In this document: in pieces, positions 45,070-64,000 of the stretch
Layout of the letters: each line of letters starts with the position of its first letter
Numbering within the stretch: the first letter of the stretch is position 1
From: Macrostomum lignano
Taxonomy: Eukaryota
Assembly: GCA_002269645.1 (NCBI GenBank)
Contig: NIVC01002232.1
Span: 124,001 to 188,000, forward strand
Reading direction: 5' to 3'
DNA length: 64,000 bases
The notes under the pieces: generated by a model
Told to the model about the DNA's origin: nothing
Databases searched by the model: none
What the model saw: the letters and a program-made list of their open reading frames with translations, nothing else
Translations under genes and position numbers: made by a program

Positions 45070-47454
45070 GCCACGATTTACGGTGGCCGGATCGGCCAGG
45101 TCGGCCAGCAGTTGCGCATGTATGATCCAACAGTACACCGCGAACCAGGACTTTGACGTCTGGATTTAAGCTCTCAAGGAGCGTTGCAAACTCAATGGGA
45201 TCGTGGACAACAGACATAAGAAGGCGGAAGTTCTAGTAAATTTGGACATTGCCACAACCTATCCCGCAGTTGTCAGGATAGAACTGCCAGACAACCTGAC
45301 ATTTGGCGAATTCAAGCAGAGGTTGTCCAAACGCTTCACACATGTCACTGACACACTGGAGTACTGTGAGCAGTTCAGGTGCTACTAGCAAGGCAAGAAT
45401 GAAAGCATGGGCAACTACAGTGATCGACTAATTGCTCTGGCTGTTAGAGCCTTTCTGCACTTCACCCGGGTTCAGAAGCAGGCTGAGCTAGTGGATCAGT
45501 TCACTGTGGGAGTGTGAATTGCCCAGTTGGCCCAAGAACAGCTAATCCTGGTGAGACCACAGAATCTAACTGCAGCGAGAAGGGCTGTGCTACGCCTAGA
45601 GACAGCAGCTAGTCTGGCTCAGCAAGTAGCACTGCCGCCAGCAGCAAGACATGTCCAGATTCTTGAGTGTGACGATAGTCAGTCACCAACTGGAGTGCAA
45701 CACAACAAGTCATCTTGGCCTGAGGAGAATTGGTTGTGTGAAGTGATGGAATAACAAACTGAGACTGCAAGAGTAGCGACGTCTTTTGGAAGCTTTGAGC
45801 AACGAGCTGCGAGAGTTCCACTCGCTGGGATCACACAATAACGACACCCAGGAGCATTAGGAACCTGCTTGCCACTAGTCACAGGACTCTTGGGGCCAAC
45901 GCAACTGATGTTTGGTGCCCTCGACTCCTCGCTACAATGCCAACGAGAGCGCCCAATTCAAGACACCCGGCACATGGATTGTGCAACACAAGCAGTTCCA
46001 TCGACTTCAGCAACCACGAGACAGCAGCAACCTGCCACCAAGGACACTGCCAGCAGGAGTCAATGTCGTCAGCAGCAGCAGCCATAGCTGCAGTGGTAGC
46101 AACAGTTGCATACGCGCCCGCCGCCCTATCAGCTGTGGGGACAGAGGGCAATGTGTTACAGGTGCAATTGCGAGCACCGGGCCAATGAGTGCCTGCATCG
46201 GCGGTTGGGCAGCACCACGTCCCAGTGCAACGGCAGCTTGGGAAATGGGATGGCTGGACGCGCCATCGGGGGCAGCACTATCCAGCAGCCAAGCCAGCAC
46301 TAAAGTCCCTGCCGAGGACTTTAGTTGCTTAGTAGGCCACTGCTGAGACCGTCTCCGCCGCACCTGTATAGTACTCTGCACCCAAGCGACCTTGAAGGGA
46401 TCTGTTTTGTAACTAGTGAGATTCAAGGTCGTTATTTTGCTTTTCTGCTTGACACTGGCTCCAAGTGCGAAGTCCTAGGATTCAGCACCTGGCACCGACT
46501 ATGTACCAATGACCCAACCCTGTGTGGCCAAATCGAGCCTTGCCTGCAACACATTGTGACCTACAATAAAGAACCTATTCAAATGGCAGGCCAACTAACA
46601 ATCAAAGTTAAAATTGGAAGTTTCGAGCCTACAGTCAATGTCCTGCTAGCAAAGGGATCTTATGACAACATCCTGGGCTTTGAGTTCCTGGAAAAGTAGA
46701 GCACCTCCCTAGATCTCGCTGCCGGGATGTTGTTTTTTTCAAGGATGGCACTGCCGCACCACTTTGCTACATGCAAACCAAAGCTACCACGTGCAGAATT
46801 TATATGGCTAAGAGCACAATTGTGCCACCGTTATCTTCAGCCCAAATCAAGATTAAACTAGCTAAAGGACGTGAGGAAAATCAAGGGACACCCGCTGTGA
46901 TTGAGCTGTTAAAACTGGCTCAGCGTGAAGAAGATGTGCAGCAACTGGATGCCGCGCCTGCCTTAATATCTATGGCCAATGGAGAAGGTGCCATTGAGAT
47001 GATCAATTGAGGCACTACTTCTATCAAAGTGTGAGCGAATGCCTTAGTCGTGGTAGCGAGACCAATCAGGCTGCCCGAGTTACAATTCTTTCCGCTACCA
47101 AAGCCAGAAGCCTCAGTCAATCAAGTTCAAGACGAAGATCCTGACACTTGGATGAAGGAGATCAACATCGACGAGGACTTGTCCAATGACCAGCATGCTC
47201 AAGTCATTGAGCTATTGAAGAAGTATAAGACCATCTTCTCGCAGGGGCCAAATGATCTCAGCTGAACCTAGCTGGTCACCCACAACATTGTATTGAAGGA
47301 CAAGGATCCTGTACATCTGCCAACCTGATGGATTCCGCTGCATCTGCTGCCCAAGGTGGACCAGCTGCTTGACGATCTACTTGCCAAAGGTGTGAATTGA
47401 CCGAGCTTCTCCAGCTACAACACCCCACTAGTGATCATCCCGAAGAAGGACGGC
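45070..47454 (+). mobile_element. Decayed Ty3/Gypsy LTR retrotransposon internal region (gag, protease, start of RT), truncated by the Polinton
   Basis: Gag-like helical region with many stops, aspartic protease FLLDTGS (46325-46699), linker EINIDEDLSNDQHAQVIELLKKYKTIFS, and RT start THNI...DPVHL...P...KVDQLLDDLLAKG...SSYNTPLVIIPKKDG, which ends abruptly at 47454. Confidence 0.85.
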
Positions 47455-48958
47455 AGTAGTAGTATGTTATAAGGGGCTGCGCCACACTTAATTGCTCGGG
47501 CGCATTGCGCGCCAGCTCGCTGGATGACTCAGCCCCTTATAACATACTACTACTACCAGGAGGTCATGGATTCAAGTGGGGGTGTGATAAATATAAAAAT
47601 ACATATATCTGTGACTGAGGGTGTTGAGGGTGAGGGCATGTGGGGGCATTGGCCTGTGGAATATTTCACAGAACACAGAATTTCCGGAATTTTTATACTT
47701 TTAAAAAGGGGGGGTGCCCTCGCCCTCATGCCCTCACTCATTTTGAAAATCACTAAAAACAGGTGAAAAATGACTAAAAACAGGTGAAAATGGTCTGAAA
47801 ACAGCGATTTTTTGTAATTTTCAAAAATTTTGAAAAAGTGCAATTTTCACGATTCCAGCTCTAAAACCATGAGAAAAGTTGGATCCTCGGGTCAATTTAA
47901 TGCAATTTCAGGTATATACAATATGAAAGTGTCATCCAATTCAACGATAGTAAATTATATATATATAAAATGGCCTTCAGTAAACCAATATTTCTAGGAA
48001 ATGCTTTAGATATTCAGTCAGCTATAACAAAACTACCACCCATCTTTTCCACTGGAAAGTATCCTGGCGAATTTCATATTCCAGGGTATTCTTTCGCAAG
48101 CCAACAGCTCTGACTCACAATGCTGATGATGTATCAGAACCCCGTAACGTGGCACATTTTTGTCTATTTTTAGAACTAGAAAAAAATGAATGAAGCAAAC
48201 ACAAAAGAATCTCAGACACACAGAGTGGGTGGCTCCACTGGAGCACAAAGGCAGCCTTTATTTCAAAGAGTTGTTTTCAAGGTATATACTAAGGTAAGTA
48301 GCGCGGAGTGAATGTTTGAATGATAATTGTCACTTTAAGTAGTAGCATGTCAATTTTTCTGGACGTCCAGAAAAAATTCTGGATATTTGTCTGCCATGTG
48401 TTTATTCATCAATAGAAGCGCTCCCCATTTCGCTAGTGGCTGCTTCAATCGTGTCGTTCTCTTCTTCATCAAGCATGCTGTCATCCTCTCCTTCAAAGTG
48501 CAGTACGATGTCGAGTTCGAGGCGGCATGCGAAATTCTCATCTTCTGATGCTCTTTGTTCAATTGCTCAAAGCAATATCCAGAAATTACCAGACTCGGGT
48601 ACTTTGTTGTTAGCTTGTAGAATGTAAATAGTCGCTGGGCAAACTTCACATCTATATCTAGCTATCTTTTATCTTTTAACAAACACACACAAATAACTAG
48701 CATAACGTTTGAGAGTTGGTGAGTGTGCCAGTCCTGCATCAGCCTGTAAATTGTTGTGAAAGACAGCTAGCATGAGGGGTGCGCCTAGTGTCTTTTATGA
48801 GTTGAATAAGGGGGTTTGATGAAGATGAAAAAACACTGAACTCCTGTGAGAGTCTCGGAGAGTGGCAGCGGAGTGTGGTGTGAGTCAGTCTCAATCTCTC
48901 AATCAGCGAAACCAGAATTCAAAAACCAGATTGTAACTGCTAAATTTTCCTAGAAAAA

Positions 48959-49300
48959 ATGGAAGCTAACCCAAATGTACGAAATGCACTGCCACAAAAG
49001 TATTATGATTCTATTATATATTTTTCTCAAATAAAAACACCCACTCGAAAGGCTCGACTAATTGAAGAAATTGATAAAGCCTACGATGAATATAAAGCAG
49101 AAATATTAAAACACAGCGATTGTAAATGCCCCCCATATTTGTATTCATTCAGAGTATATCTTGCACATGTTGATAAATGGGCATTGATTTCGAGACAGCA
49201 CATAAGGAATGATGAATTTTTCGTCATGCTTAAGTTGAACATTTTCAAACTCCCCATAACCCTTGAGAAGTACATTGAAACTGATGAATTATATTGTTAA
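48959..49300 (+). CDS. Polinton hypothetical protein (113 aa)
   Basis: Intact ORF preceded by AAAAAATG, directly upstream of the primase-helicase. Confidence 0.6.
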   Translation: MEANPNVRNALPQKYYDSIIYFSQIKTPTRKARLIEEIDKAYDEYKAEILKHSDCKCPPYLYSFRVYLAHVDKWALISRQHIRNDEFFVMLKLNIFKLPITLEKYIETDELYC

Positions 49301-49316
49301 ATTTATTTTAAATAAA

Positions 49317-51785
49317 ATGGAAAGAAAAAATCAAAACGATTCAAGTTTCTCTCCTGTGATCGTACAGGATCCGCTTCAAAACCATGATGCCCCACCACCG
49401 CCAAGATTGACAAATTTAAAACAAACAAAATCGTACGATAAACTAATTAATCTCTATGAAGAACTTAATTTTAGATTCGGAAGTTGCAGTGTAACATGGA
49501 ATAGTAAAACAAAGAAAAAAATACCATCAGGAATGCCAACCAAAGCAGATAGGAATTCAACCTCACCACCATTTCGACCAGATGTAGACAACATGATTTG
49601 GATAGATACTAGAAACTCAAATATAACCGTAATCGATATTGATAATGCTGACCTATGCCCTGAGTTGAATGAACTGTGTATGACTCATTGTGATTGGATT
49701 GTTCAGACAAACAAGGGACACCACTTTTACTTTAACAAGGTAGATGAATTGAAAGTAACGATTCAACAAAGTGTGGGTTTTGATATTCCCGCCTTAATAT
49801 TTGCTCCACCAGGTTTCTATTATGTCGATGGTGAAATTAGGGAATACAAACGTACAAAGTCCAAATGTTTAATAGACATGCCAGATGTAGTTCTTGAGGA
49901 GATAAATAGATTAATTGAGCCACAGGATAAAAAAGAAAACCAAGAACCCGATAAACAGGCACTAAAAAGCACCGTTCCACCACCCACTTGTGAAGGAGCT
50001 TCAAAGTTGTTAAGTATAATACAACACAAAAACCAAGACTATGATTCTTGGTACAAGGTAGCACTTATACTCCGCGACATAGACAGTGGTGATGAAATGT
50101 ACAAAGTATTCACTGATTGGTCAAAAGTAAATTATGATAAGTTCGATTCCGAATCATGTAAAAATGTGTGGAATAGCACCAGTACCAGCTCTGCTGATGC
50201 ACAGGACAGACTTACTATCGGTACACTAAAGAAATGGGCAAGTGAAGAAAACTATAACAAATATAAGGAATGGAAAAGCAAATATGATTATTATGGTAGG
50301 ATTGAGTTTCTTGATGATAATTTCACTGACGTTAATATAACCAACTTTGTTTATGAATATAAGAAGAATAATATAATTTACAATAGCGATGGTATTTACT
50401 ATTTTGATGATGATAAGTGGAGAGAACTAAGTAGTATAAATGACATATTTCTTAAAATATCACACCTTGTCAGCAGTGAGTTAAACCACCGAAAGACTAG
50501 ACTCGAAATTGCAATTAAGAAGGCGGCTGATGATAAAGAGAAGTTAAAAGCACTTGAAAAGAAACTACAGAGTACAATGAAGAATATAAATTCAATACAA
50601 GGAGCCAACAAACTAAAACAGGTAACTACTTTGTTCAAAGAGAGGTTTACTAACAATGAAATTGAATTCGACATGAAATGGAATTTGCTAGGGTTTAACG
50701 ATGGAGTATACGACCTCCTTACAGGTGAGTTTCGCGAGTATAGATATGACGATTACGTTACTAAATCGGTGGGATATAAATACTCGGATGTACTTAGAGT
50801 GAGTGATTACGACTATGGCTTCATTGTTAATCTGCATAACCAAATTCATCCCGATCAAGAAAACAGAAAGAGTTGGGAATCCGTTATAGCCACAGCTCTA
50901 ATGGGTAAGAATGTTGAAAACTTTATAATGTTTGATGGCGCTGGTGGAAATGGCAAGGGAGTTGAGGACAACCTACTTCTTAGAACTCTAGGGTCTGATT
51001 ATGCAGCACCACTGAGTCCTGATGTTTTGAATTCACCAATAAGAATAGACAGGCCACAACCAGCCCTAGCACAAATTAATAAAAAGAGGTTGGTTATCAG
51101 TCAAGAAGTAAGTGGTGTCTTGAACAATGCATCAATAAAATTACTAACTGGTGGTGGGGTTATCCAAGCTAGAAATTTATATTCAAGCCAGTGTAATGTC
51201 GTTTTACACGCAACCCTAATAGTCGAATGCAACAACAAGCCTGACTTTAGACAAAATATTGGAGATGCAGAAAAAAGACGAATTATAAATATTAATTACC
51301 CATGTAAATATACAACAGATACCGACATCATTGATCATGCGAAACACATTTATAAAGCCGATTCATATCTTAAAACCGAGGAATTTAAGAATAAATATAA
51401 GTTTGCTGAGATGAAAAACCTACTAGAAATTTTCAAGCAAACAAAGGGTGAAATATATCGATCGAAAAGCGTAATTGAAAACACTAATGAATTCATACAA
51501 AATTGTAATTGGTTTTCTCACTTCTTTGAAGAGAATTATGAATTTTTAGAAACTGAGGAAAAAACATTTATGCTTATTAGAGAAATTTACACTGCCGCAA
51601 CAGAGAGTGAATACTATAGGACTCTAGCCCAACGTGAGAAACGTGAATTCCAACAACAATACATAACAGATTTCTTCAAGAATCACAAAGACTATTGTAA
51701 GTATTATAAGGATAGATATAGGCGTAGGATAGATGGTAAACAGCAAGAAACTAGAAATATTCTGTTTTACTGTGTAAAAAAATAA
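49317..51785 (+). CDS. Primase-helicase: Prim-Pol (AEP) + PriCT-2 + D5_N + SF3 helicase
   Basis: AEP motifs VIDID and TNKGHHFYF; PriCT-2-like YDSWYKV...FTDWS...VWNS...TIGTL; D5_N NLLGFNDGVYDL; Walker A GAGGNGKG and motif C ECNNKP. True start taken as the TAAAATG at 49317. Confidence 0.9.
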   Translation: MERKNQNDSSFSPVIVQDPLQNHDAPPPPRLTNLKQTKSYDKLINLYEELNFRFGSCSVTWNSKTKKKIPSGMPTKADRNSTSPPFRPDVDNMIWIDTRNSNITVIDIDNADLCPELNELCMTHCDWIVQTNKGHHFYFNKVDELKVTIQQSVGFDIPALIFAPPGFYYVDGEIREYKRTKSKCLIDMPDVVLEEINRLIEPQDKKENQEPDKQALKSTVPPPTCEGASKLLSIIQHKNQDYDSWYKVALILRDIDSGDEMYKVFTDWSKVNYDKFDSESCKNVWNSTSTSSADAQDRLTIGTLKKWASEENYNKYKEWKSKYDYYGRIEFLDDNFTDVNITNFVYEYKKNNIIYNSDGIYYFDDDKWRELSSINDIFLKISHLVSSELNHRKTRLEIAIKKAADDKEKLKALEKKLQSTMKNINSIQGANKLKQVTTLFKERFTNNEIEFDMKWNLLGFNDGVYDLLTGEFREYRYDDYVTKSVGYKYSDVLRVSDYDYGFIVNLHNQIHPDQENRKSWESVIATALMGKNVENFIMFDGAGGNGKGVEDNLLLRTLGSDYAAPLSPDVLNSPIRIDRPQPALAQINKKRLVISQEVSGVLNNASIKLLTGGGVIQARNLYSSQCNVVLHATLIVECNNKPDFRQNIGDAEKRRIININYPCKYTTDTDIIDHAKHIYKADSYLKTEEFKNKYKFAEMKNLLEIFKQTKGEIYRSKSVIENTNEFIQNCNWFSHFFEENYEFLETEEKTFMLIREIYTAATESEYYRTLAQREKREFQQQYITDFFKNHKDYCKYYKDRYRRRIDGKQQETRNILFYCVKK

Positions 51786-51806
51786 ACGAAGATGTTATCA
51801 ATGAGA

Positions 51807-54800
51807 TTACATTGGCTGATGAGGAATAGATCTGATAGGATCTAAATAATATCTTTTATCATCTAACGGACTCATTGTTTGTTTCATAATCTCACGAATA
51901 TATATTTTATTTTTTTCAGATACAGTCATACTTACTCTACCTCTTTGAATATCTTTGTAAACTGTCAATAGTATGTTTTTAAATGTTTCAAACTTTATAT
52001 TTGTACTGCTTTTATCAACTCCCTTGATCTTAACACACTCTCCTGAAACTGTAGTGAAAGCATACTCCTTTGACCGCAGGAATACAGCTTCGGAAATTAT
52101 TGAGCCATTCATTTCATCTTTCAACTTTCCAATGACTTTCTTGTTCGTCTCGGAGTATAGTGGATGCTCTATTGGATAATCCGATGTGTCTAAGTGTTCT
52201 TTAATTTTTTTAAGATCCTGATAAACATCCTGAGTAATCACTGAGAATATTAGCGAATCACAATCAGAATAGTGCAATTGACAGCTGTTCCAATTCTTCT
52301 CAATAACATTGTAATAGCAATCGTACATTAGCATTTTTGCATAATCCAGAATAGCCATTCCTAAATAAATTGGCTTGTCACACGCAATTGTCTTTTTGTA
52401 CATTTGGACACCAACTGCATCCTCACTAAACATAATGAAATCTTTGAAATTTGGTTTGGAAAAATAACGCCTTGCAGTTTTTTCTTCAGCTACAAGATGA
52501 AAGTTCGACCTATTCTTTACATTTTCGATTGTTTTACCGTAGAATGAATTGTTCAGTAGTTTCCACAGGTCTTTCTCAAATTTAGTTTTTGCTTCCATTC
52601 TCCGCCTGGTATTAAATTCGATGTATTTACTCAACCAGTTTGACTCTTTGAATGAAAGAATTCTATAAACTCTCGTAACTCGCATGCCCATCTTCTCATA
52701 AAACTCAAGTAGTCTGTGATGTAAAACATATTTCTCCTTGTTGTAAAATGTCAACATCAACTTGGATTGAACAAACTTTTTCTTTTCGACTTCAAGATAT
52801 TGCTTCTGTATATCAGATAAATCCTCAAACCTAGTTGTTCGTTTCTCAGGAGCCAGTGGATATTTACTTGTAGCTTTCTTACATTCCTCTGTATATTCAA
52901 GGTCAACTTCAAGAAAACAACCCCTGCCATTAGGAATATTCTTGTGATACTCTAGATCATTTTCAAACTTGAAATCTCCCACAGGTAGATTTTTCATCAT
53001 TGCTTCACCATATAAATTATTCTTGTCCAAGTATAGCATGTACGACGATTCAGAATTGCTGTCATAATTTTCTAAATACTTATTGTTCATTTTTTTATAT
53101 CGATCTCCAAGAACTCCAGAGAAACCACCGCGAATACCACTTTCTACCATGGATATCATTTCTTTATCACCAAGTAATTCCAATTCCACATTAGTATATT
53201 TCAACCCACATGCCCAAGATAATCCAGAAAGGGAAAAGCAATACGCAGGATCTATCTTGAAATATTTCAAAAATGTTGATCGAAACTTCTCAAAAGCGTT
53301 GACAAATGAGTAAATCTTTCTAATTACTGCGTTGTATCACTGGGTGGCAAATATTTTATTTCTTCTTTAGAGAGTGTAAATGGTGGTTCCAAAAACCTAG
53401 ATCCATCTAAAAACACAACACCACTGGTATAATTCCCCAACTTAATTGCAACATGGTCTTCCGATGTTTTAGAAATAAAATCCAATATTATTTTTTATTA
53501 TTCATTCGTGTTAATGGAGCTATCAAATAGTTTAGATCTTTTCCAGATTCATTCAGGAGAAACAACGGTACTGTTTGATTCGCCTTGCCCTCTTGGTATT
53601 ACATGATTGACATGCTGCGCCGCGATATTTACCATTGTAGTGATTATGCTCTCGAATTTTTTTACTATCTACAAATGGCCTTGAGCAGAGAAAACATTGT
53701 TCTGCCGCTTTGTAATCAGTCTCTTCGACATCACTTAATCTTGGATGTTTATATCTATCCATTTCATTTTTTATATGCTCAAACTTTTTGATTACGGTTT
53801 CAACGAATGATTCCACTGTAGTATTTGAAATAATATCTGATTTTATAATGTCCTCATAGTCGGAACTAGTAAAAAGTGTCCATTGTGATAGCTCTAGTGA
53901 TTTATCATCCATCGTTACATAATCTAATATTGCATAAAACACAAATGGTTTTCTTACACTCATGTGGTAGTTTTTAAACTTTAATATCCTCTTATCAATC
54001 TTTGGAACTTCAATTGACACTTTGAAGTCAGTACAGATTGCTTTATGATTATCCAGTGCATCCTGGGAGTATTTAACTTGAAGACACTTTCGACAAAGAA
54101 AAACCCTGTTGTAATTTTGGGACGTGAGGAATAAACACAAGTCTGTTATTAAACAATAATGATTTTTGACAAGTAGTAAATCAATAACATTGGGGTTGTC
54201 GTAATCTTCTGTCAGACGAATAGAATATATTGACTCTTTAGTATTTATATCCCTTAATCCAAACACATTTATATGAAGACTGTTCAACTTTTCAATCTCA
54301 GAGATATCTCGAATGTCCACTGGAAATTTAACGTCTCCTAAGTTTATTTCATTTATATACTGTGTATACTTACCAACTCTATATCTATGTTCCTTCACAG
54401 GATGGAGCTTTGCTAAAATAGACCAGAGAAAGCACCTATTGTCTGTAGTGTTCTTAACATTTACTAATGCGTTTGATTTAATTGGAATTGGAATATAAGT
54501 TCCTCCTTTCAACTGATTAATGCCAACAACTTTCAACACAATCTTTACTAACTTAACAAAATAATATCCCGATCCCCTTTCATTAAAACTATCCTTCCAT
54601 CCATCGAATTCATCCAGAACATCCTGAATTGTACTTTCTATACTAGTTTCCACTTGGAGAAGATTTAACAAAGTTCGATACTTTGAATGATATTGGAACT
54701 CAATCCAACTGTCGGTAGTTCCTTTATAAAATTCTGCGACAAAGGAAATTCTGTATTTTATTGAATCTCTAGCCATCAAATATTCGGAAAGAATTGGGGA

Positions 54801-54871
54801 GATTAAACCGCGAATTTCTTCAACGGAGTCGAGATCAATTCATAAGAGGCCGCTGGTATTTTCCTTTCCAT
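51807..54871 (-). CDS. Polinton-type family B DNA polymerase (pPolB) with an endonuclease VII-like zinc insert; split by several frameshifts
   Basis: Polymerase motifs GIRGG, YLDKNNLYGEAM, KLLNNSFYGK and YSDCDS. The N-part has CFLWSIL, HYCLI, CFLC and REHNHYNGKYRGAACQSCN. The true ATG is in TAAAAATG at 54871. Frameshifts near 54840 and across 53270-53600. Confidence 0.88.
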
Positions 54872-54896
54872 TTTTAAGAAAAAAAATTAAACAGAC

Positions 54897-55637
54897 TCAA
54901 GCATAGGGGGGTGCACTTGGAGCATTTGATTGAAGATTGAGTGTTGCCGAGTACTCTTTTGGCTTATCAGCTAGACCCAATTTTTCTCTCAGATCTTTCT
55001 CCAGCAGTTCCTTTTTAACTTTTTCCTTCGCTGAATTATCAAGTCTACTCTCTTTGAGGATTTTATCAACGAATTCCGAATGGTTAACTTCTTCAGGCGC
55101 AACACAGGTGTCTAACAATTGGTCTCTTTTCTCTCTGTATTCTGAATAAATTGCAGCAGCTGCTTGAACCTCTTCAAGAGTTAATCTATAATCATCAACT
55201 GCTTTTTGGGAGTAAATATACAATCTCTCTCTGTATTGATTTGCCAGATCTCTGAGAACAATGTATTTTGCCTTCTGCTTTTGGCAATGCATTTTCACAG
55301 TTGCAAACAACGACGTGGATTTTACAGCTTCAAAACCACTCATTGCCCCGATTACTACTCCAATAACTAAGGGATTCAATGTCAGTATCGATGTTGCTAT
55401 GCCAATTCCTGTAGCAGCCAAGAGACTTACATTTCCTGTCACAATGTTGATCCAATTTATCCTGCTACTTTGTCGTTTGTACTTTTTTACCTTTTTGCTA
55501 TAAATTGTAAGATCTTTAGTAATGCATTCAATACTGCCTTTGATTTCACCCTTTCTCTGATTGAAATAGTCCCGCTCCCTCAAATCTGCTTCATGCAGCT
55601 CAACCACAGGATAGATGTGTTCATTTTTTTCATTCAT
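54897..55637 (-). CDS. Polinton membrane-associated protein (hydrophobic hairpin plus coiled coil)
   Basis: Basic stretch KKVKKYKR followed by two hydrophobic segments (NVSLLAATGIGIATSIL, PLVIGVVIGAMSGF); TAAAAATG start. Confidence 0.65.
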   Translation of the reverse strand: MNEKNEHIYPVVELHEADLRERDYFNQRKGEIKGSIECITKDLTIYSKKVKKYKRQSSRINWINIVTGNVSLLAATGIGIATSILTLNPLVIGVVIGAMSGFEAVKSTSLFATVKMHCQKQKAKYIVLRDLANQYRERLYIYSQKAVDDYRLTLEEVQAAAAIYSEYREKRDQLLDTCVAPEEVNHSEFVDKILKESRLDNSAKEKVKKELLEKDLREKLGLADKPKEYSATLNLQSNAPSAPPYA

Positions 55638-55639
55638 TT

Positions 55640-57048
55640 TTATGTGGCGATTATGTCTAAAATCGGATAAAGTTGAAAGCCTGAAACTATAAGAACAGTT
55701 GATCCTTCAGTGGTTGAATTAATATGCACTCTATAAACAGAGAATTTTTCGGTGGAAGCTACTTCGAAATACTTCATCACTCCAGGAACTAAACCAGCGT
55801 TTTCGGTAGAAAAAATATTCTTAAAGTCTCTCTTGTTATTGCTTCCTTTCAGAATAAAAATTTTTGGTTGATTTTTTATAATTTCACTACCCACTGCTTT
55901 GGTTCCTTTCAACCCGAATTTCCAAATTCGAATGGACTCGGGAAGTTGTACTTCAATGTAAGAATTGGGTTCATTCCTCGATGCCCATTCTGAATTAGAT
56001 ACTACATAACCCCAATTATCTGACGTTTCAAATGCTCCTGATGACGCTACATTGAAACCCCTTTCTCTATAGTTTTGACGTGTTGCTAGTGGGGAATATA
56101 TCCTGTATAAGATTTGAAACCTAGTCCCCGCCTTAGTCGCAGCTCCACTGATTCAAGTGCATTGTCTACGTATAGCTTTGGTACAGCTTGAAGTCTATCT
56201 ATAGGCCACACTAAATCATTAACCACTGTTTGTCTCTCAAGTAATTCAACTTTTGTAAGCTTTACGGAACCAGAAAAATTAAGAGAATAATGGAAATAAT
56301 ATGAGGGATTGGGTATTTTTTTCCTAAGATGTGCATTGCCTCTTCGTAGTTCAATGGGTGCACTTTGTTCAACAGGTGTCCAGTTTGTTCCATTTAGGCT
56401 CACACTAACAGACCAACCAGGCCACACCTCTCCTTCCAACTTTATCTCTACAACTTTCCTAGCTCTTTTCAGAAATTGAACTCGTATCCACTTGTCTGAG
56501 TCATCTACACTGCTCCATTCTGAAGCTGGGTTTGAATCTGCAACATGATATGCTGCTGAAGAGTTATGAGAAGCGGTCACTTTCATGTCAGGATGGGAAG
56601 CGTTTGAAGTCAGTAATGAAAGAATATTGACTAATTTCGAACTCTCTGTACCTCCCGCAGTACCTTGCCTTTCTGCTAACAAAGTGTCAATCTCAGTTTT
56701 AGAATACATCTTAGTGTCAATCTCAGTTTTAGAATACATCTTAGTGTCAATTTCGGTTTTAGAATACATCTTAGTGTCAGTTTCGGTTTTTGTGTAGACA
56801 TTGTTTACGCGCCCATGAGCATCGTCAATTAATTGTAGCATGGTGATATTCATTGCGTCACTATCTTCCTTTGAATAAGAGTCTGAAACATTTCTCTTTG
56901 CTAACAATAAATTATCTATTTCCTCTCTCTTATATCCTTCATTTTCATTGATGTATCGATCATCAGCTAACGCTATTGTTATTCCAGGTGCTATATCATT
57001 TGAATTTGACGAGTAACCAAATTGATTGGCAGTATTCTTGTAACTCAT
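55640..57048 (-). CDS. Fibre/spike-like protein with YSKTEIDT repeats and two discoidin (F5/8 type C)-like domains; one -1 frameshift at 56091-56094
   Basis: Domain 1: VTASH...AYHVAD....EWSS...WIRVQF...VEIKL. Adding one C gives YIPPLATRQ...GFNVASS...SEWASRNEPNSYIEVQLPESIRIWKFGL, continuing in frame into ORF 55912-55640. Confidence 0.7.
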
Positions 57049-57476
57049 TTTAATTGCTGCAAAATTTCATTATAGCTATCTCCTTTATCGATTCGGTGTA
57101 AAAAGTACAGCGACATTTGACCACAAAATTTCTTATCAAAAGTTTGAATTTGTTCTTCCATGTCTCCACATATTCTATTCTTTGTGTGATTAAACTTTTC
57201 CATAATTTCCAGTGTGGGCGGTAGTGCATAGGAATCAAAAAAATAAACCTTATCAGGAGCTGAAAATATAGCTGAATGATGTATACCCCGTTCTTTCGAA
57301 GTGTGAATATTTGTCATAAAGTAACCATACTGTGGTAAATCAACAATTTCATCTCTCATGGCATAGCGAAATGGTTTTAACTTGAGATATTTTGCCCAAT
57401 TTATCAGATCAATATTAGTCGTAGTGTCAGTCCCAAACTTTTGTTTAAATGCATTCCATGTCTCAGCTTCGCTCAT
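57045..57476 (-). CDS. Adenain-like cysteine maturation protease
   Basis: His (GIHHSAI), Asp (YFFDSY) and Gln/Cys (QIQ......CGQMSLYFL) motifs of Polinton proteases. The probable start is the TAAAAATG just inside the annotated ORF. Confidence 0.85.
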   Translation of the reverse strand: MSEAETWNAFKQKFGTDTTTNIDLINWAKYLKLKPFRYAMRDEIVDLPQYGYFMTNIHTSKERGIHHSAIFSAPDKVYFFDSYALPPTLEIMEKFNHTKNRICGDMEEQIQTFDKKFCGQMSLYFLHRIDKGDSYNEILQQLK

Positions 57477-57485
57477 TTTTAACAC

Positions 57486-58275
57486 TCATATTTGTCGTAC
57501 GTGTAGATTTATAAATATTTCCTCGCCATCAAAGTCGTATAGAACACCAGACTCATCTTCGATGACAAAGTCGAATGTGCTCAACATGTTTGTAGTTAGT
57601 GGTAGGTACACAGGATTTGCAGGCTCTTGAATAATTTTACTTCCCATTGGGACAGAGAACGATGGAATTGAAAGAAGTATTTGCTTATCAATTAAATGAT
57701 TTCCATTGGCTGGATCAGTGATAAAACCCCCTTTGATATTGAGACAACGAACCATGATCGCACTTCTAGCTCCGTCTATCCGAGCTGGATTTGGAGCTCT
57801 CTCAAATGGTTTCAAATACACTTCCGAATTGAATCCCAACAGTCTTCTAAAGTTATTGGAATGTGCATCCCTGAAATCAACTTGATACTCTGTGGCTAAC
57901 CGTAACTCAACTCTACGCGTGTCTAGGCTTGCACTGAAAACAATAGCCCCTCTTTCCAATCATTTGCAGCTGTTAGCAATCTTTGAATCTCGCTTGACAG
58001 ACTTTTAACTTCCCAAGATCCTGCTTGAATCTTTATTTTTTCCATGTTCTACCACTATCCCTCGAGTATCGCAACTCATTATTGCCTCCTTCAATATTGT
58101 TAATAGCATCAAAGACTGCAAACTTTTTTATACCAGCTTCGTATTCTCGATCTTCATACAAATTTATAGGAGTGCCTAGAGTTTGTCGAAATGGGTTTTT
58201 AATTGAAAAGAAGTCAAATGTGCGTTGAAACTTTTTACTCAAGAGGATGTTGACTTTTTCTATTTCTTTTTCCAT
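57486..58275 (-). CDS. Minor capsid (penton-like) protein, split by two single-base deletions
   Basis: N-part ...INLYEDREYEAGIKKF...AINNI...NNELRY. Restoring one A (58036-58041) and one G (57947-57950) gives WKKIKIQAGSWEV...DWKEGAIVFSAS, then NFRRLLGF, MVRCLNI and IIQEPANPVYLPL...FVIEDESGVLYDFDGE...LHVR. Confidence 0.75.
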
Positions 58276-58533
58276 TTTTAAGCAAGTAATTCTGCTAGCT
58301 CTTTATCAACATTGTTATGTCCCTCTGCTTTTGCGGCTAGTAATGTCAACACTCTTTCACTGAGTCCAGATCCCGGTTTTACTCGATATCCTGGTGGATT
58401 ATCTTTCAATATCCTTACTGCTTGCTTATAATTCCCACTTGATTTGGCCGCTGGATTTTTACATGTTCAATGAGGTTAACATAATCCTGCAATGTTTGCA
58501 TCTTGAATTGCTTCAGCTCTTCACCATTTTCAG

Positions 58534-59007
58534 TTACTTTAGGCATTTTGAACAACTCTTCAAGATCTTCAGAAAATGGCATTCGAATTCGTTGACAATG
58601 ATGTCTCGACCTTGTTCATGGAATTCAACATCTATTACAGATGATCCAAATATATATCCAGCATCAGTTTTTTGAATCCGTATACTAGGCGCTGGTCTTT
58701 GAGTTATTGGAATCTTTCCAATTTCTTCAATTATTTTGTCAAATACTTCCAGAGGTTCAAATCGTCCTTTTGGTGTACTTGATTGCGGAACTGGAACTTT
58801 TTGATTCTGAAGTTTATCAACAAGGTTGGCATTGACATCAATAAATTCATCGAGCTTTTCTGTGACAGGTTTTTGAGCTAATGGAGCCACTCTTGCATAT
58901 AAACTCTCTTCTCCAATTTTCAAATAGCGTTGAGCATCATTTCTGGATTTGTACGTTTCTCGCTGCTTTGCTAAATTAATGAGTTCTCTTATATATTCAT
59001 TAGTCAT
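58534..59007 (-). CDS. Polinton hypothetical protein; may extend to about 58280 through a frameshift
   Basis: TAAAAATG start and AT-rich viral codon usage, between the ATPase and the minor capsid gene. Confidence 0.55.
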   Translation of the reverse strand: MTNEYIRELINLAKQRETYKSRNDAQRYLKIGEESLYARVAPLAQKPVTEKLDEFIDVNANLVDKLQNQKVPVPQSSTPKGRFEPLEVFDKIIEEIGKIPITQRPAPSIRIQKTDAGYIFGSSVIDVEFHEQGRDIIVNEFECHFLKILKSCSKCLK

Positions 59008-59009
59008 TT

Positions 59010-59783
59010 TTACAATGGGATTTTAGTTAGAACATCCTTATACAAATCTTGCTCATCCTCATCAGCTCTTGTATTTATATAGATATAGCCATACTTCTTT
59101 TTCCAAGCCTCTCTACATTTAGCCTTGAATATAGCGGGTTCATAATTCGTTTCTATATTTCTAGCAATGTGATTCAAGTTTGTATCTTTTTGTTTAAAGA
59201 TTATGTAACATGTCGTATTCTCCCTGACAGTATTGCGATCTAGTTTGGTAAAATTTTGAGCTAGATAAAAACCACAACAGTTTCCATGCCTGCCTCTCTG
59301 AAACAGACTTTCCTGAAATGTTTGATTAGCCTCTCCCAAAACATCGTCCAATATCACACATGTCTTTAGTCCATTATGAAAAATTTCTTCATTTGGAGTA
59401 TGGGAAAGAGTGACAGGAATTTTCTCTATTACTTCTGAATTTTCTGATGTGCTTTGCACTCGACCAGGGTTGGCTGCCTCTCGACAAATATGTCTAATAT
59501 CTTCAGGAGATGCATCCTCACTCACCTGGTAGACATGATAGAGTGAGTTGATAAGAGAAGGTGGGAGACCATTTTCAAAGCCATATTTTAGAAACTGATA
59601 CTCTGGATCCATTTGAGATGCTCTGGGAACATATAAAACTAACTCATTAAAGTCAACTAGTTTTTCAGGACTTGTAAGAATATGGAATAGTAAATATGTT
59701 TTACCCGTATTTGTAGCGCCGATAATACAACATAAAAGAGGATTAGGGAAAATAGGATCATGCTGAAATTTTACTTTGGGCAT
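59010..59783 (-). CDS. A32/FtsK-like packaging ATPase
   Basis: Walker A IIGATNTGKT, Walker B VILDD, and FQRGRH...YLAQ...VRENT motifs. Confidence 0.92.
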   Translation of the reverse strand: MPKVKFQHDPIFPNPLLCCIIGATNTGKTYLLFHILTSPEKLVDFNELVLYVPRASQMDPEYQFLKYGFENGLPPSLINSLYHVYQVSEDASPEDIRHICREAANPGRVQSTSENSEVIEKIPVTLSHTPNEEIFHNGLKTCVILDDVLGEANQTFQESLFQRGRHGNCCGFYLAQNFTKLDRNTVRENTTCYIIFKQKDTNLNHIARNIETNYEPAIFKAKCREAWKKKYGYIYINTRADEDEQDLYKDVLTKIPL

Positions 59784-59804
59784 TTAAAAAAAGAAAAAAT
59801 GACC

Positions 59805-61169
59805 TTATTCGACGCGGGTCATTTGATATTCACTGGTAACTTTTATTACATTCTTTGTTTGTTCAAGAATTAGTGCAAAAGCAGTCAGCTCAACATTTGT
59901 TGACTTCTTGATAAATAATTGAATATTCACTCCACTCTTGACCAGAAACTCATCTTGAGCTGTTAGATCAAAGCAAAAGATTGGATAGATGGTTAGAAAG
60001 TCTTGTTTATTGAATGGAGGAGTTACACCGAAACGGCTGCAGATGTCTTCGTACATTTCATACGCTCTGTGAATGTCTTGAGCTACTGGATCAATTTCAA
60101 CATAATCATTCGGATACATCACCTGATTTAATCTGACTTGAAGCTGGGTTATTTTCACTGCATTTGCTCCAGTTTTGTAAGACACATACTTGTGATCATT
60201 AACTATATATGATGGGTTGTTTACGTCATATTTGAAAGCTACAAAGATTGCAAGTGGCATATTGGAGATGTTGGCTATGTTCCATGTATATGGACTTCCT
60301 TGAATGAGTTGTGGTGGAACCGTTACCCTCTCTGGAAATGATACTGTAATGTCCTTGTTGAGTGATTTTAGAAAAGCTGCTTCAGCACTGGGTGACAAAG
60401 TAATAGCAGGGATCCAAATCTCAAAGCTATTAATAGTTAACTTAGCTTCCGTCCCGGCAGCTCCAAAGAAAATTTCAGCATCGTTAGTCTTTCTTGTCCA
60501 TGTGAATTTATATTTAATTCCTTTGCTAATCTTCTGCCAATCAAGGAACCCAATGAGAGGTGTTAATGATAGTTTGATTGTTCCACCTCTGTTTGGAGCA
60601 TTAGTGACATTGTTATAATTTTCAAGCCTCCTAATGTATCCAGTATTCGAATCCTTCTTATTGAGTCTATTTTTCATAGCGATTGCTGCAGTTCTCACAG
60701 CTTCAGCATCTGCGTTGTTTGCTAGAGGTATATCAGAAACAGTCCCAGCATCTCCAGTGTCTGGAATCCATCCGTATGCTTCTCCAACTTCATTCATTAA
60801 TTTTGAGTACATTACGGACTTTAAGATTGTGTCATACTCTCCAGGATCATTATAGACTTTCTTTGTTCCTCCAATGTCAACTATGAGTTGAGAGAAAAGT
60901 CTCATAGGCCAATTATGTTCTAGAGTAATGTTCGTATTCAAGTCGGTGTTATCTCGTTGTGTTATTGAGTATTTTATACAACCGAATGCCTCTGACATGA
61001 GAATGTATGACTCTGTTGAATTGACTTCATGAACTATTTGACCTCCTGCAACATTGAGATTATTAGTGCTACCTGGAGTTGGAGAAATCTTAATATAGTC
61101 TTCTTTCTTTTTGAAAAAGCTAAAAGTTTTGTCCTCATATATGCTCAGTATATCCTTTTTGTTCTCCAT
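59805..61169 (-). CDS. Major capsid protein (double jelly-roll type), 454 aa, intact
   Basis: Size and position next to the ATPase; beta-rich pattern with Polinton MCP-like motifs (NNLN..G.QIV, RLFSQLIV.IGG, QVRLNQVMYP, PIFCFDLT). The fold is inferred, not demonstrated. Confidence 0.82.
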   Translation of the reverse strand: MENKKDILSIYEDKTFSFFKKKEDYIKISPTPGSTNNLNVAGGQIVHEVNSTESYILMSEAFGCIKYSITQRDNTDLNTNITLEHNWPMRLFSQLIVDIGGTKKVYNDPGEYDTILKSVMYSKLMNEVGEAYGWIPDTGDAGTVSDIPLANNADAEAVRTAAIAMKNRLNKKDSNTGYIRRLENYNNVTNAPNRGGTIKLSLTPLIGFLDWQKISKGIKYKFTWTRKTNDAEIFFGAAGTEAKLTINSFEIWIPAITLSPSAEAAFLKSLNKDITVSFPERVTVPPQLIQGSPYTWNIANISNMPLAIFVAFKYDVNNPSYIVNDHKYVSYKTGANAVKITQLQVRLNQVMYPNDYVEIDPVAQDIHRAYEMYEDICSRFGVTPPFNKQDFLTIYPIFCFDLTAQDEFLVKSGVNIQLFIKKSTNVELTAFALILEQTKNVIKVTSEYQMTRVE

Positions 61170-61212
61170 TTTTATAAGAGAAATTTCAACTAAGCTTCAT
61201 GAGGTCTAAGAA

Positions 61213-61641
61213 TTATCCCATTACCCTGTTTCTCCTTTTCAACTTTAAAGTCTTTAGCAGCCACTTGACTGCTTCGCTGGGTACTTGTTCGACTCTTTTA
61301 GCCGCATCAACTAATACTCCACTCCCTTGAGCCTTTTTCAACTCTTCTAGTTTTTGCCGTTCAATGCTTTCTATTGTCTTATTATGTTTAGCATTGTTGG
61401 CTGTATTAACACTTTTTGCAATCATTGTACCAACTCCTGAGGCTGCTCCGATACCACCCAAAATTGCTGGTAGTAAGCCTAATAGAGGAATTATTCCACC
61501 TTCATGTTCTTTCTGTTTCTCTTGCAATTCTCGAATCTTCTCTTTAGAAAGATATTGCTTTTGCTTATTTACAGTAACATATCTTGGTTTTCCCTCTCGA
61601 ACATATCGATTGAGTCTTGCTTCAGTGTTTTTCTCGCTCAT
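61213..61641 (-). CDS. Small virion/core-type protein with amphipathic GGIIPLLGLLPAILGGIGAASGVG segment
   Basis: Basic N-terminus plus the GG-(F/I)-(L/I)-P-L motif recurrent in small Polinton proteins; TAAAAATG start. Confidence 0.65.
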   Translation of the reverse strand: MSEKNTEARLNRYVREGKPRYVTVNKQKQYLSKEKIRELQEKQKEHEGGIIPLLGLLPAILGGIGAASGVGTMIAKSVNTANNAKHNKTIESIERQKLEELKKAQGSGVLVDAAKRVEQVPSEAVKWLLKTLKLKRRNRVMG

Positions 61642-61649
61642 TTTTAAGG

Positions 61650-62072
61650 TCAGAATTTCTTCAAACCATTGCCTTGTCTCAAAGACACTTGAGACTGTTC
61701 TGCTGTTCCTAGAGCCTTTTTAACAATATCTTGAATAGCCTTATTTGATTGAGAAGCTATCTGTTGCTCTTCTTCCATTCTTTTCTTTGCTTCTTTATCT
61801 CTACGTTTCTTTTTAATATATTCCAGTTCCTCACCTGCTTTAGACATGTCACTGTATGATTTCTTCGCATCGAATATGTTCTTCGCTGTGGTAGCTGTTT
61901 TACCTATTGCATCAGCTCCACTCACAATTTTACTTCCATGATTTGATAAAAAGTTTGTGACACCACTGATCATATCACCAATTCCTTCACCCTCTTTATC
62001 AGCTAGTAGTTGTGAATCAGACGTTTCAATCTGACCTTTCGCCCGTTTGCAGTTTGTTCGATAGGCGCTCAT
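61650..62072 (-). CDS. Small Polinton protein with GEGIGDMISGVTNFL amphipathic helix and coiled coil
   Basis: The true start MSAYRTN follows TAAAAATG near 62072; GxG motifs and a C-terminal QGNGLKKF. Confidence 0.6.
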   Translation of the reverse strand: MSAYRTNCKRAKGQIETSDSQLLADKEGEGIGDMISGVTNFLSNHGSKIVSGADAIGKTATTAKNIFDAKKSYSDMSKAGEELEYIKKKRRDKEAKKRMEEEQQIASQSNKAIQDIVKKALGTAEQSQVSLRQGNGLKKF

Positions 62073-63258
62073 TTTTAGTTGAAAAATTTGCTGGTAGAAG
62101 CTGGGATTTGTAAAATGATCCAATGATTTCTTCTCCATTCTCATCCTCAATAATGTAGGTTATGGGATTGGAGTAAACTATTTTCTTTATCCTAAACACT
62201 TCTGAAATTTTCCAATATCCTCTTCGACCCTTTTCAAAGTGCTCCTTATATCTATAGATATGAACTTTGTCACCTACTTTGAAGTTTGGTTTCTCATTTG
62301 AATACTCGAAAGTTGGCTTTGGTACTCGCTCAGGATGTTTAGATGCTTCTGAAGGAGTTATCAGAATCTCAGAATGGATTGTGTTGTTGTATTTTTCAAC
62401 AATAGCTGGCAATGTGTGGAGCCACTTCTGATTACCCTGTAGATCAAATTCAAACCAGAGTTTATTTGTGAGAGTACGATTGAACCTCTCAATCATTGCA
62501 TTCTTGGACTCGCCATAAATTGAAAACATCTTGTTAATATATTCACCCCTTTCATCCTTCTTTCTAATGTTGTCTTTTGAAAACGAGTATAGCTTGTACA
62601 TATGCTGATTATAAAACTCCTTGCCTTCATCTACACAAAGTCTCTCTGATCGTCTTCCTGATTCCTTAAATACTTTTTGGAAAGCTTCTGCAACTTCCGC
62701 TCCCGTCTTTGTTTTCAAAGGAACTGCCCAGGCGTAACGTGTAAAACCATCTATGATAGTTAGAGCATATTTGTAACCTCTTTCGGGCGGTAGGATAATG
62801 ATATCTGCATGCCAAATTGTGTCTTTTGCATAGTGAATCATTTTTCTAAATACTCTTGGCTTTCGATATTCTTTATGCAATTTTACTGCATCTTCATAGC
62901 TAAGACCCTTACCATAAATTGTTAGACAGTCTATACAATTGTTGGGGTTGTGAGTATGAATGCCTAATCCAAACCGAACTTTAGCCTTGATAATACGCTT
63001 TACTAGATTTCGAATGAGTCTCTCTTTCACAGACAAGTCACTGGTTGGAATAGCATCTAAATCAGCTATCATTTTTTCATCAGCTATATGCTTCTTTGCT
63101 AGAGCTTCCTCTGGATTTGAAGAAGTGTTTTCAGCATCTCTATAGTTTTTGTCATGATAGTAAGCAGTCCAATCGATTGGGTTAATTGGTAGACTGTCAT
63201 ACCGAGGCCGGTCTGTAATTGGATTGAGTCTCTTGTCTAAATTTGTACCGGCAGTTGA
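62026..63258 (-). CDS. RVE (retroviral-like) integrase with an N-terminal parvovirus-type phospholipase A2-like domain in the same frame
   Basis: DDE motifs WHAD, IIDGFTRYAWAVPLK, CVDEGKEFYN and MIERFNRTL, and C-terminal PITYIIEDENGEEIIGSFY. The frame is open upstream of Met 63072 to about 63260: GTNLDKRL...LPINPIDWTAYYHDKNY...KHIADEKM...KAKVRFGLG. Confidence 0.85.
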   Translation of the reverse strand, partial: STAGTNLDKRLNPITDRPRYDSLPINPIDWTAYYHDKNYRDAENTSSNPEEALAKKHIADEKMIADLDAIPTSDLSVKERLIRNLVKRIIKAKVRFGLGIHTHNPNNCIDCLTIYGKGLSYEDAVKLHKEYRKPRVFRKMIHYAKDTIWHADIIILPPERGYKYALTIIDGFTRYAWAVPLKTKTGAEVAEAFQKVFKESGRRSERLCVDEGKEFYNQHMYKLYSFSKDNIRKKDERGEYINKMFSIYGESKNAMIERFNRTLTNKLWFEFDLQGNQKWLHTLPAIVEKYNNTIHSEILITPSEASKHPERVPKPTFEYSNEKPNFKVGDKVHIYRYKEHFEKGRRGYWKISEVFRIKKIVYSNPITYIIEDENGEEIIGSFYKSQLLPANFSTKNERLSNKLQTGERSD

Positions 63259-63398
63259 TCCTCAGTCTTTCGAAAGAGGCTGGACTTTATCTTAAGGCAT
63301 CATCAGGATTGACCAGATCCTTCAGCCCCACCTCCATAAAGTCTCTGAACCTTCTCCATATCCTTGTCAACTTTAATGGACGTACCATAGGTACTCGA

Positions 63399-63984
63399 TC
63401 AAAGATCGGACTTAGGAGCTTGGCTGCGGATTTCCACCATGTCCTCAAGCTTGTTACCGTTGGGAACAGGAATTACCTGTGTTCCTTCAGAAGATTTCTC
63501 AGCTGAAGTGGTACTTGAGGCTATTGAAGGAGTTCCCGCAATTTGAAGGTGTCGCCATTCACTAAGCACTTGTTTAACCTTGGTTATAATGTTTGTGTAT
63601 TTATCCCGATAAAGAAATTTCAATGCAAATTCTCCTGTTAAGGGTGATTCCATTGTCTAGTAAAATATTCTTAGGTTCGTTTGCAGTTTTATTGATGCAT
63701 ACATAAAACAACTGGTAGGTGGGATTAGACTTTTTATAGTCTAATAGTTTCCGATAGTTACTTTCACGACTTGAGGAATTGTCTGTGTTATCAGAAGATT
63801 TAAGCTCTAATGCAATCTTTCGCTCAACGTGAACCAGGTCAATCTTTTTTACCTTTTCGAATCCAAAATATTTTTCTGCTAAAACTTCATATAGTCTACC
63901 TAGTCTCATTTGAATAACTTTAATCTTGTGTGAAATTATTAGCTCTTCTTGAAATAAATCGCAAAGAATTTGGTCATACCCCAC
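63399..63984 (-). CDS. PD-(D/E)xK nuclease, Eco47II/Sau96I restriction-endonuclease-like; +1 frameshift at 63642-63644; the N-terminus may extend beyond the window
   Basis: MRLGRLYE...IDL......ALELKSSDNTDNSSS matches the G..HE / D / ExK-xxx-NTxNSSS signature recalled for Eco47II-family enzymes. Removing one C joins NGIT to LTGEFALKFLYRDKY. Confidence 0.55.
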
Positions 63985-64000
63985 CTTGTCGTCAATTGGT

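Follow-up and report, generated by a model that had tools for sequence, protein, structure and literature searches.

We describe a Polinton (Maverick) of the flatworm Macrostomum lignano whose replication module appears to have been rebuilt. The window analyzed is the whole stretch of 64,000 nucleotides from contig NIVC01002232.1 (assembly GCA_002269645.1, positions 124,001 to 188,000 of the forward strand). The element starts at exactly window position 47455, with an (AGT)n terminus, and continues past the window end; GC content goes from 0.51 in the flank to 0.36 in the element. At a probability of roughly 0.55, we favor a reading in which this is a recently active Polinton with a full virion gene set, a pPolB polymerase stripped of its exonuclease, and a separate Prim-Pol/SF3 primase-helicase (D5) that compensates for the stripped domain.

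On gene content, the element is a Maverick-Polinton (Polintoviricetes): it encodes pPolB, an rve integrase, a double jelly-roll (DJR) major capsid protein (MCP), an A32 packaging ATPase, and an adenain-like protease. Judging by joints between contigs, listed for two of the four sequencing runs compared, and with only the left end lying in the window, its common form would measure about 16.4 kb with terminal inverted repeats (TIRs) of about 640 bp; the class ranges are 13-25 kb and 100-1500 bp. An earlier sequence-only reading had seen a near-complete virus with its own primase-helicase, and this observation stands mostly as described. What it took as unusual needs dividing: a full morphogenesis module is the norm in Polintons (PMC10748475), while pPolB together with a primase-helicase is uncommon (PMC3671162), though some polintoviruses encode D5-like primase-helicases (PMC4405056). 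It also overlooked the trait that says most about the element, its degenerate exonuclease. Judged from sequence, what is new is that an animal Polinton pairs a helicase with a proofreading loss that is apparently derived and common to the family; the capsid module is not news.

In its polymerase part, pPolB is 51-53% identical to its closest relative, P0057, with motifs A, B, and C kept; the terminal-protein region, vOTU, zinc finger, and polymerase all align, and the vOTU Cys and His are retained. We take the terminal-protein and vOTU regions to be such from their motifs. The domain order in PMC11071308 adds to these labels, and the protein has no PF03175 match, making it a 'Beta' polymerase under the definition in PMC8502044. 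The damage lies in the exonuclease, whose motifs are conserved across taxa according to Jeong et al. (PMC10748475). Aligned to P0057, pPolB has another residue in place of the ExoI Asp and an Asp in place of the ExoI Glu, the ExoII Asn and Asp are kept, and the ExoIII Tyr and Asp positions are occupied by other residues; about 30 codons stand where P0057 has about 100 amino acids before ExoIII. The domain is about 75 amino acids short. From ExoII to the GxRGG motif there are about 133 amino acids, against a median of 209 and a minimum of 159 among the homologues long enough to measure (98 of 150). All four catalytic carboxylates are kept in 92 of the 98 scorable homologues, and two others lack ExoI only through alignment gaps. 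A regular-expression census gave 153 here and a median of 229 over 67 of 150 homologues, with one shorter outlier (P0177, at 107).

This loss is likely to be shared by the family and to be recent in origin. All 24 sequencing runs listed come from one organism, and 20 of them, from 8 studies, contain at least half of the query words; short-read contigs were compared in four of the 24 (X1, X13, X15, and X16), using all contigs of each. Contig 11 of X13 crosses the whole exonuclease region, with 3012 nucleotides over 3009 window bases and 32 substitutions, so the deletion, judged by length, appears to be a family trait. A FastTree phylogeny of 61 polymerase domains (the window copy and the first 60 usable homologues, with no mavirus sequence included) groups the window pPolB, at support 0.95, with P0057, P0059, and four partial sequences. 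P0057 and P0059 are both exonuclease-intact, and the loss is therefore probably derived. The polymerase phylogeny that the sequence-only reading had called for thus places the protein among exonuclease-intact Polinton polymerases. P0057 itself represents a 39-member cluster on megabase contigs of ENA assemblies: another multi-copy Polinton family and a natural exonuclease-intact comparator.

The second half of the module is the primase-helicase. The claim of an intact 822-residue protein convergent with pPolB is borne out, with the refinement that 822 residues count from the second ATG and 833 from the first. Expected residues are in place: the DxD of the primase at 118-120, H147, and D167, Walker A at 552-559, Walker B near 608, motif C N650, and an arginine finger near 666. 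Pfam places PriCT_2 and D5_N above cut-off; Prim-Pol falls below it (E 0.0049 for the whole protein, 0.00069 for the N-terminal part alone). The DxD and GxH motifs are invariant in 6 of 6 aligned relatives, and a profile of N-terminal relatives weakly matches pRN1 ORF904 (E 0.097). A structural model (pLDDT 74) matches the C962R PrimPol of African swine fever virus (ASFV) with E 1e-23, and aligns to vaccinia D5 over 410 residues (Z 31.7, rmsd 6.3). Sequence search of the PDB with D5 alone gave no matches.

The 74 helicase relatives of this protein are 26-47% identical, and none bears an animal name. The primase domain is common to only 6 of 115 helicase relatives, so the protein is best seen as a mosaic. 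A related helicase occurs in 405 viral loci; within the DNA available for the best 80 of these, none has pPolB, an integrase, or this MCP, and 10 have an A32 ATPase. The top loci are giant-virus bins and contigs of 15-30 kb. A search of phage records returned remote P4-type primases only. The primase-helicase, intact by its reading frame, probably derives from the gene pool of Polinton-like viruses (PLVs) and giant viruses.

The family appears to be young, multi-copy, and recently active. Long contigs diverge from the window least in the capsid/integrase block (0.04-0.46%), more in pPolB (0.5-1.1%), and most in D5 (1.5-3%). In X15, conserved element contigs have a depth of 2296-2314 and flank contigs 108-119, or about 20-fold, a depth not equal to copy number; loci may be fewer than it suggests, because the DV1 line has extra chromosomes (PMC5730564). 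As to identity in the genome, which the sequence-only reading had asked for, the capsid block lies less than 0.5% from other copies. The depth of D5 contigs resembles that of pPolB and MCP contigs in X1, X13, and X16.

As assembled, the window copy is damaged. All of the morphogenesis genes, integrase, and pPolB announced by the sequence-only reading are present, as it said, with the minor capsid gene a probable one; they are not all intact. Frameshifts break pPolB, the fibre, the minor capsid gene, the gene at 58278-59007, and a small open reading frame (ORF) near 61.2 kb, and the integrase gene lacks its 5' part. Open in the window are the primase-helicase, MCP, A32 ATPase, protease-like ORF, and rve integrase core. 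At each break zone, 3 or 4 of the 4 runs have contigs that are one base longer or shorter than the window, in many cases at their full depth; the frameshifts therefore look private to this copy or like assembly errors. Homopolymer runs of at least 5 occur in 3 of 5 break zones, not clearly above background.

Contig joints outline the ends of the common form. An opposite-strand joint links about 48.1 kb (plus) to about 63.25 kb (minus) at depths of 1390 in X15 and 46 in X16, and is unlisted in X1 and X13. A right end that mirrors the left one would produce such a joint, and the first 640 bp or so are thus likely to be the terminal repeat. Depths in X16 are 96 over the repeat, 47-49 over the capsid block and core, 46 at the integrase-side joint, and 14.7 + 8.6 + 24.2 on the D5 side. 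An inversion of 48.1-63.25 kb as the cause of the joint is disfavored, given that the reciprocal joint is unlisted and that the X16 depths fit a two-ended repeat; the X1 and X13 depths, with no doubling over the terminal repeat, keep it in play. A second joint, from about 48.1 to 55.66 kb, has depths of 201 in X15 and 7 in X16, its short side being under 50 letters. It suggests an 8.9-kb derivative that has lost the capsid and integrase genes and kept D5, pPolB, and the SLATT-like gene. At the extreme end, the fold of 47455-47760 is stable (z -6.87; 0 of 100 shuffles equally stable), and the terminal hairpin may be an origin or an integrase signal. Loose contig ends at 47491 show that the terminus varies, either among other copies or in related families, and one X13 contig, at depth 2.2, joins pPolB at 53676 to the element's own terminus, possibly a copy-into-copy insertion.

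How might such a module work? The excised linear genome would still be started by protein priming at its (AGT)n ends. With a crippled exonuclease domain, pPolB would copy without proofreading and probably with weak strand displacement. Ahead of the polymerase, an SF3 hexamer could open the double strand; re-priming or copying of the displaced strand could fall to the primase domain. The integrase would then insert copies, and the capsid genes could package them. Helicase gain would most likely have come first, relaxing selection on the exonuclease. In mavirus and PLVs, a lost exonuclease goes together with a gained helicase, and Krupovic et al. proposed that each change makes up for the other (PMC11071308). 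The pairing has so far been known from groups of viruses other than this one, whose hosts are mostly single-celled. On this reading, M. lignano would supply a third case of the coupling after those two, independent and recent, and its close exonuclease-intact relatives make the compensation idea testable with two natural proteins.

Several points count against this reading. It is work on phi29 that gives the exonuclease domain a part in strand displacement. The primase domain is modelled at low confidence (pLDDT 30-74), and database searches gave no M. lignano record matching D5. None of 21 related loci has D5, most of these loci being short; no exonuclease-less or D5-bearing sister was found among them, and the argument concerns one lineage only. 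The frameshifts are judged from contigs only, with 12 of 47 indel rows listed. Finally, OmPLV has an exonuclease-complete pPolB fused to a helicase (PMC12721341); because it has both, helicase gain does not force exonuclease loss.

Other histories would leave some of the same traces. One is a replicase swap under way, in which the Prim-Pol/SF3 protein is now the true replicase, as in PLVs, and loads at the terminal hairpin, with pPolB a decaying leftover. A strong hairpin is available, and Prim-Pol domains of the pRN1 type can polymerise, though the pRN1 match is weak here. The absence of pPolB and rve from the best 80 of 405 viral helicase loci fits the idea. So does the frequent replacement of pPolB by AEP-SF3 in group 2 Maverick-Polintons (10.64898/2026.06.19.733378). 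We nevertheless consider it unlikely: decay is limited to the exonuclease, with the polymerase motifs and vOTU residues kept, the capsid-less derivative retains both D5 and pPolB, and DDE integrases accompany pPolB rather than AEP replicases (10.64898/2026.10.13.758929). A slightly poorer prospect is that the primase-helicase is mobile cargo without a replication role, the exonuclease loss being an unrelated, tolerated deletion. Mobile AEP-SF3 genes have been proposed (10.64898/2026.10.13.758929), helicases are scattered in coral polintoviruses (PMC11131425), and both the mosaic make-up of D5 and its greater divergence among copies than that of the capsid block would suit a passenger. Rarity tells the other way: exonuclease loss is so uncommon among relatives that its chance coincidence with a helicase is improbable, and the 833-codon frame has every motif intact and a family-wide depth.

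We give little credence to a family that is non-autonomous or dying, its frameshifts real and its copies last moved by the enzymes of other Polinton families. M. lignano does hold many other pPolB-integrase loci, a deleted derivative exists, and the window copy has five frameshifted genes and a 5'-truncated integrase gene; against this, the single-base length differences recur in every break zone, the frames of the MCP, ATPase, protease, integrase core, and D5 run uninterrupted, and copies are near-identical. There is also a bolder reading, which we regard as a doubtful proposition: an animal Polinton that is active and forms particles, its replication halfway from protein priming to a primase-helicase, with about 20 near-identical copies in a laboratory flatworm, a transcribed capsid gene, and a capsid-less, replication-only satellite form beside it. 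If true, it would be the intermediate required by proposed swaps from pPolB to AEP-SF3 and by a Polinton route to D5-using giant viruses.

The virion genes point to a typical Polinton. The MCP model (pLDDT 77.7) has its best PDB matches in the mavirus and Sputnik MCPs, at 9-13% identity; iridovirus MCPs also matched. Matches in BFVD were remote only, and scans of viral contigs with the MCP gave no match. The protein has the same sequence as P0054, and one residue in 454 separates it from the annotated M. lignano proteins PAA48909/PAA55392 (BOX15_Mlig029656g2/g3), which settles the flatworm host that had been supposed. Two MCP sequences, identical or one residue apart, occur on 2 contigs each, for 4 contigs. 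Since RNA-seq was the source of the Mlig_3_7 gene set (PMC5730564), there are probably transcripts of the MCP; the BOX15_Mlig identifiers probably belong to that set, going by their names, and near-identical copies share reads. Two runs guessed to be RNA cover the flank and non-coding ends as DNA runs do, and say nothing on transcription. Virions of Maverick-Polintons have never been seen according to 10.64898/2026.06.19.733378, and this family, young and multi-copy in a worm that is cultured and can be made transgenic, offers a good chance to look for them.

Minor capsid and protease are probable labels, given for the place of these genes in the element, their motifs, and their relatives at other Polinton loci. 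The protease His, Asp, Gln, and Cys are invariant in 5 of 5 aligned relatives, two of four relatives have weak Peptidase_C5 matches (E 0.02 and 0.045), and a profile search of the PDB gave no protease match, only weak unrelated ones. Both pieces of the minor capsid gene match single ORFs adjoining the ATPase or MCP in L014, L017, and L019; library search gave no match, and PDB profile search weak unrelated ones only. The first small basic ORF has relatives adjoining the MCP in L009 and L019, and we presume from general resemblance that the small basic ORFs are pX/pVI/cupiennin-like. The fused PLA2-integrase frame also occurs in the metagenomic relatives L008 and L019, making it a likely lineage trait. 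The start of this gene seems to lie within the terminal repeat: of four related loci tested, two (L008, E 6e-4; L019, E 0.005) have PLA2-integrase frames with an N-terminus that resembles a piece there, which supports a repeat that includes the gene start. At about 63.25 kb, inside a conserved PLA2 motif, other DNA begins, so the frame has no 5' part in the window. That DNA is itself multi-copy, by its joints, loose ends, and depth in contigs, and the Atlas neighbors of its restriction-endonuclease-like ORF are viral and restriction-endonuclease clusters; it could be a nested or homing-type insertion, a recombinant end, or the end of another Polinton family.

Features of the element and its flanks (window positions; a dot marks features without strand)
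Feature	Position	Strand	Remarks
Target site: decayed LTR-retrotransposon gag-pol	45100..47454	+	zinc-knuckle, aspartic-protease, and reverse-transcriptase-start motifs in three-frame translation; many stops
Left TIR, ~640 bp (putative)	47455..48095	.	(AGT)n end and contig joints; length inferred, right copy outside window
Terminal hairpin, 26-pair stem on single-stranded DNA	47455..47555	.	first 25 nt repeated inverted 76 nt inward
5' piece of PLA2-integrase gene within TIR	47990..48095	+	dead-ends at left end
Variable spacer, only in some copies	48100..48950	.	short acidic minus-strand frame; low depth, skip joints; no Pfam match
113-aa ORF overlapping primase-helicase start	48959..49300	+	no Pfam match
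Primase-helicase, Prim-Pol/PriCT-2/D5_N/SF3	49284..51785	+	open frame, convergent with pPolB
pPolB: terminal-protein region, vOTU, shortened degenerate exonuclease with EndoVII zinc-finger insert, polymerase motifs A, B, C	51807..54839	-	lies in three or more frames, shifted at ~53.3-53.6 kb
246-aa two-helix membrane protein, SLATT-like (weak)	54897..55637	-	Pfam SLATT_1 E 0.024, below cut-off
Fibre-like: 10-residue repeats and two F5/8 type C (discoidin) domains	55640..57048	-	frameshifted near 56.1 kb
Adenain-type maturation protease (probable)	57045..57476	-	open frame; His66, Asp81, Gln111, Cys118
Probable minor capsid (penton)	57486..58275	-	frameshifted ~57.9-58.1 kb
Conserved Polinton ORF	58278..59007	-	frameshifted ~58.4-58.6 kb; C-terminal piece matches L010
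A32-type packaging ATPase	59010..59783	-	open frame; Pfam Pox_A32 above cut-off
MCP, 454 aa, DJR	59805..61169	-	open frame; PF21738
Two small basic ORFs, glycine-rich amphipathic stretches	61213..62144	-	no meaningful Pfam match
PLA2-like domain in frame with rve integrase (DDE kept)	62026..63261	-	Pfam rve above cut-off; Phospholip_A2_4 E 0.0032
DNA absent here from common form	63250..64000	-	PD-(D/E)xK restriction-endonuclease-like ORF (63601 to beyond 63999); Pfam RE_Eco47II above cut-off

Set beside known systems, the element combines traits usually found apart. With Maverick-Polintons and adintoviruses (PMC8502044, PMC10748475), it shares pPolB with OTU, rve, A32 ATPase, protease, DJR MCP, a gene in the penton position, PLA2-like and small amphipathic genes, and probably terminal repeats and size; it differs in its deleted, stripped exonuclease, the extra Prim-Pol/SF3 beside pPolB, and a PLA2-integrase fusion whose start seems to lie inside the terminal repeat. 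In mavirus and pMVRE group 1 (PMC11071308, PMC13215967), too, pPolB has terminal protein and vOTU with its exonuclease reduced to a remnant; an SF3 helicase in a gene of its own, rve, and a DJR capsid complete the likeness. In contrast, pPolB here sits with exonuclease-intact animal Polinton polymerases and keeps the EndoVII insert, the MCP is 9-11% identical to that of mavirus, and the helicase bears a primase domain. The likeness of the two replication modules thus suggests convergence, not kinship, although by gene content the element would work like mavirus. Group 2 Maverick-Polintons and AEP-SF3 PLVs (10.64898/2026.06.19.733378; PMC11296320) combine a capsid module of the Polinton type with a primase-SF3 fusion, in animals as well; their fusion substitutes for pPolB, often with a tyrosine recombinase, whereas both replicases and an rve integrase are present here. 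Replicase mosaicism has been reported (10.64898/2026.10.13.758929). D5-like polintoviruses (PMC4405056; S3H in the Fig. 5 legend of PMC8502044, for elements from non-animal datasets) are alike in having pPolB with a D5-like gene, and the accessible text of these sources names no flatworm case. ASFV C962R, poxvirus D5/E5, the SaPI5 primase-helicase, and pRN1 ORF904 share domain order and helicase fold, at 14-22% identity; the primase here is of the Prim-Pol type, unlike most helicase relatives.

The suggestion of an undescribed lineage holds in part. A literature search, with most subscription papers and Repbase outside it, found no published description of a Macrostomum Polinton or Maverick; the accessible part of the PMC8502044 supplement has no Macrostomum entry, and in that of PMC13215967 the genus is named only within a list of screened genomes. 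Loci with pPolB and integrase are, however, already listed anonymously: Jeong et al. report 748 pPolB1 loci in 8 of 73 flatworm assemblies, with 78 and 175 in two M. lignano assemblies (PMC10748475). By eye, 1 of the 78 rows of one assembly has a similar pPolB-integrase spacing, a likeness of distance and not of sequence, and none is alike among 15 of the 175 rows of the second.

The element interrupts the target retrotransposon within the start of its reverse transcriptase; we take this flank to be a Gypsy-like long terminal repeat (LTR) retrotransposon, and a Pfam scan of three flank pieces gave no match. No alternative genetic code is needed, as the long frames are open under table 1; the alternative codes of rhabditophorans are mitochondrial. 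Farther upstream, window 22400-29200 holds long frames of 617, 246, 300, and 279 amino acids with no Pfam match, which by their motifs resemble a transposon of the CACTA/EnSpm type. Positions 1-45000 hold dense satellite and minisatellite arrays with units of 8, 12, 19, 20, 21, 22, 24, 38, 41, and 42 nucleotides, a richness general for the M. lignano genome (PMC5730564).

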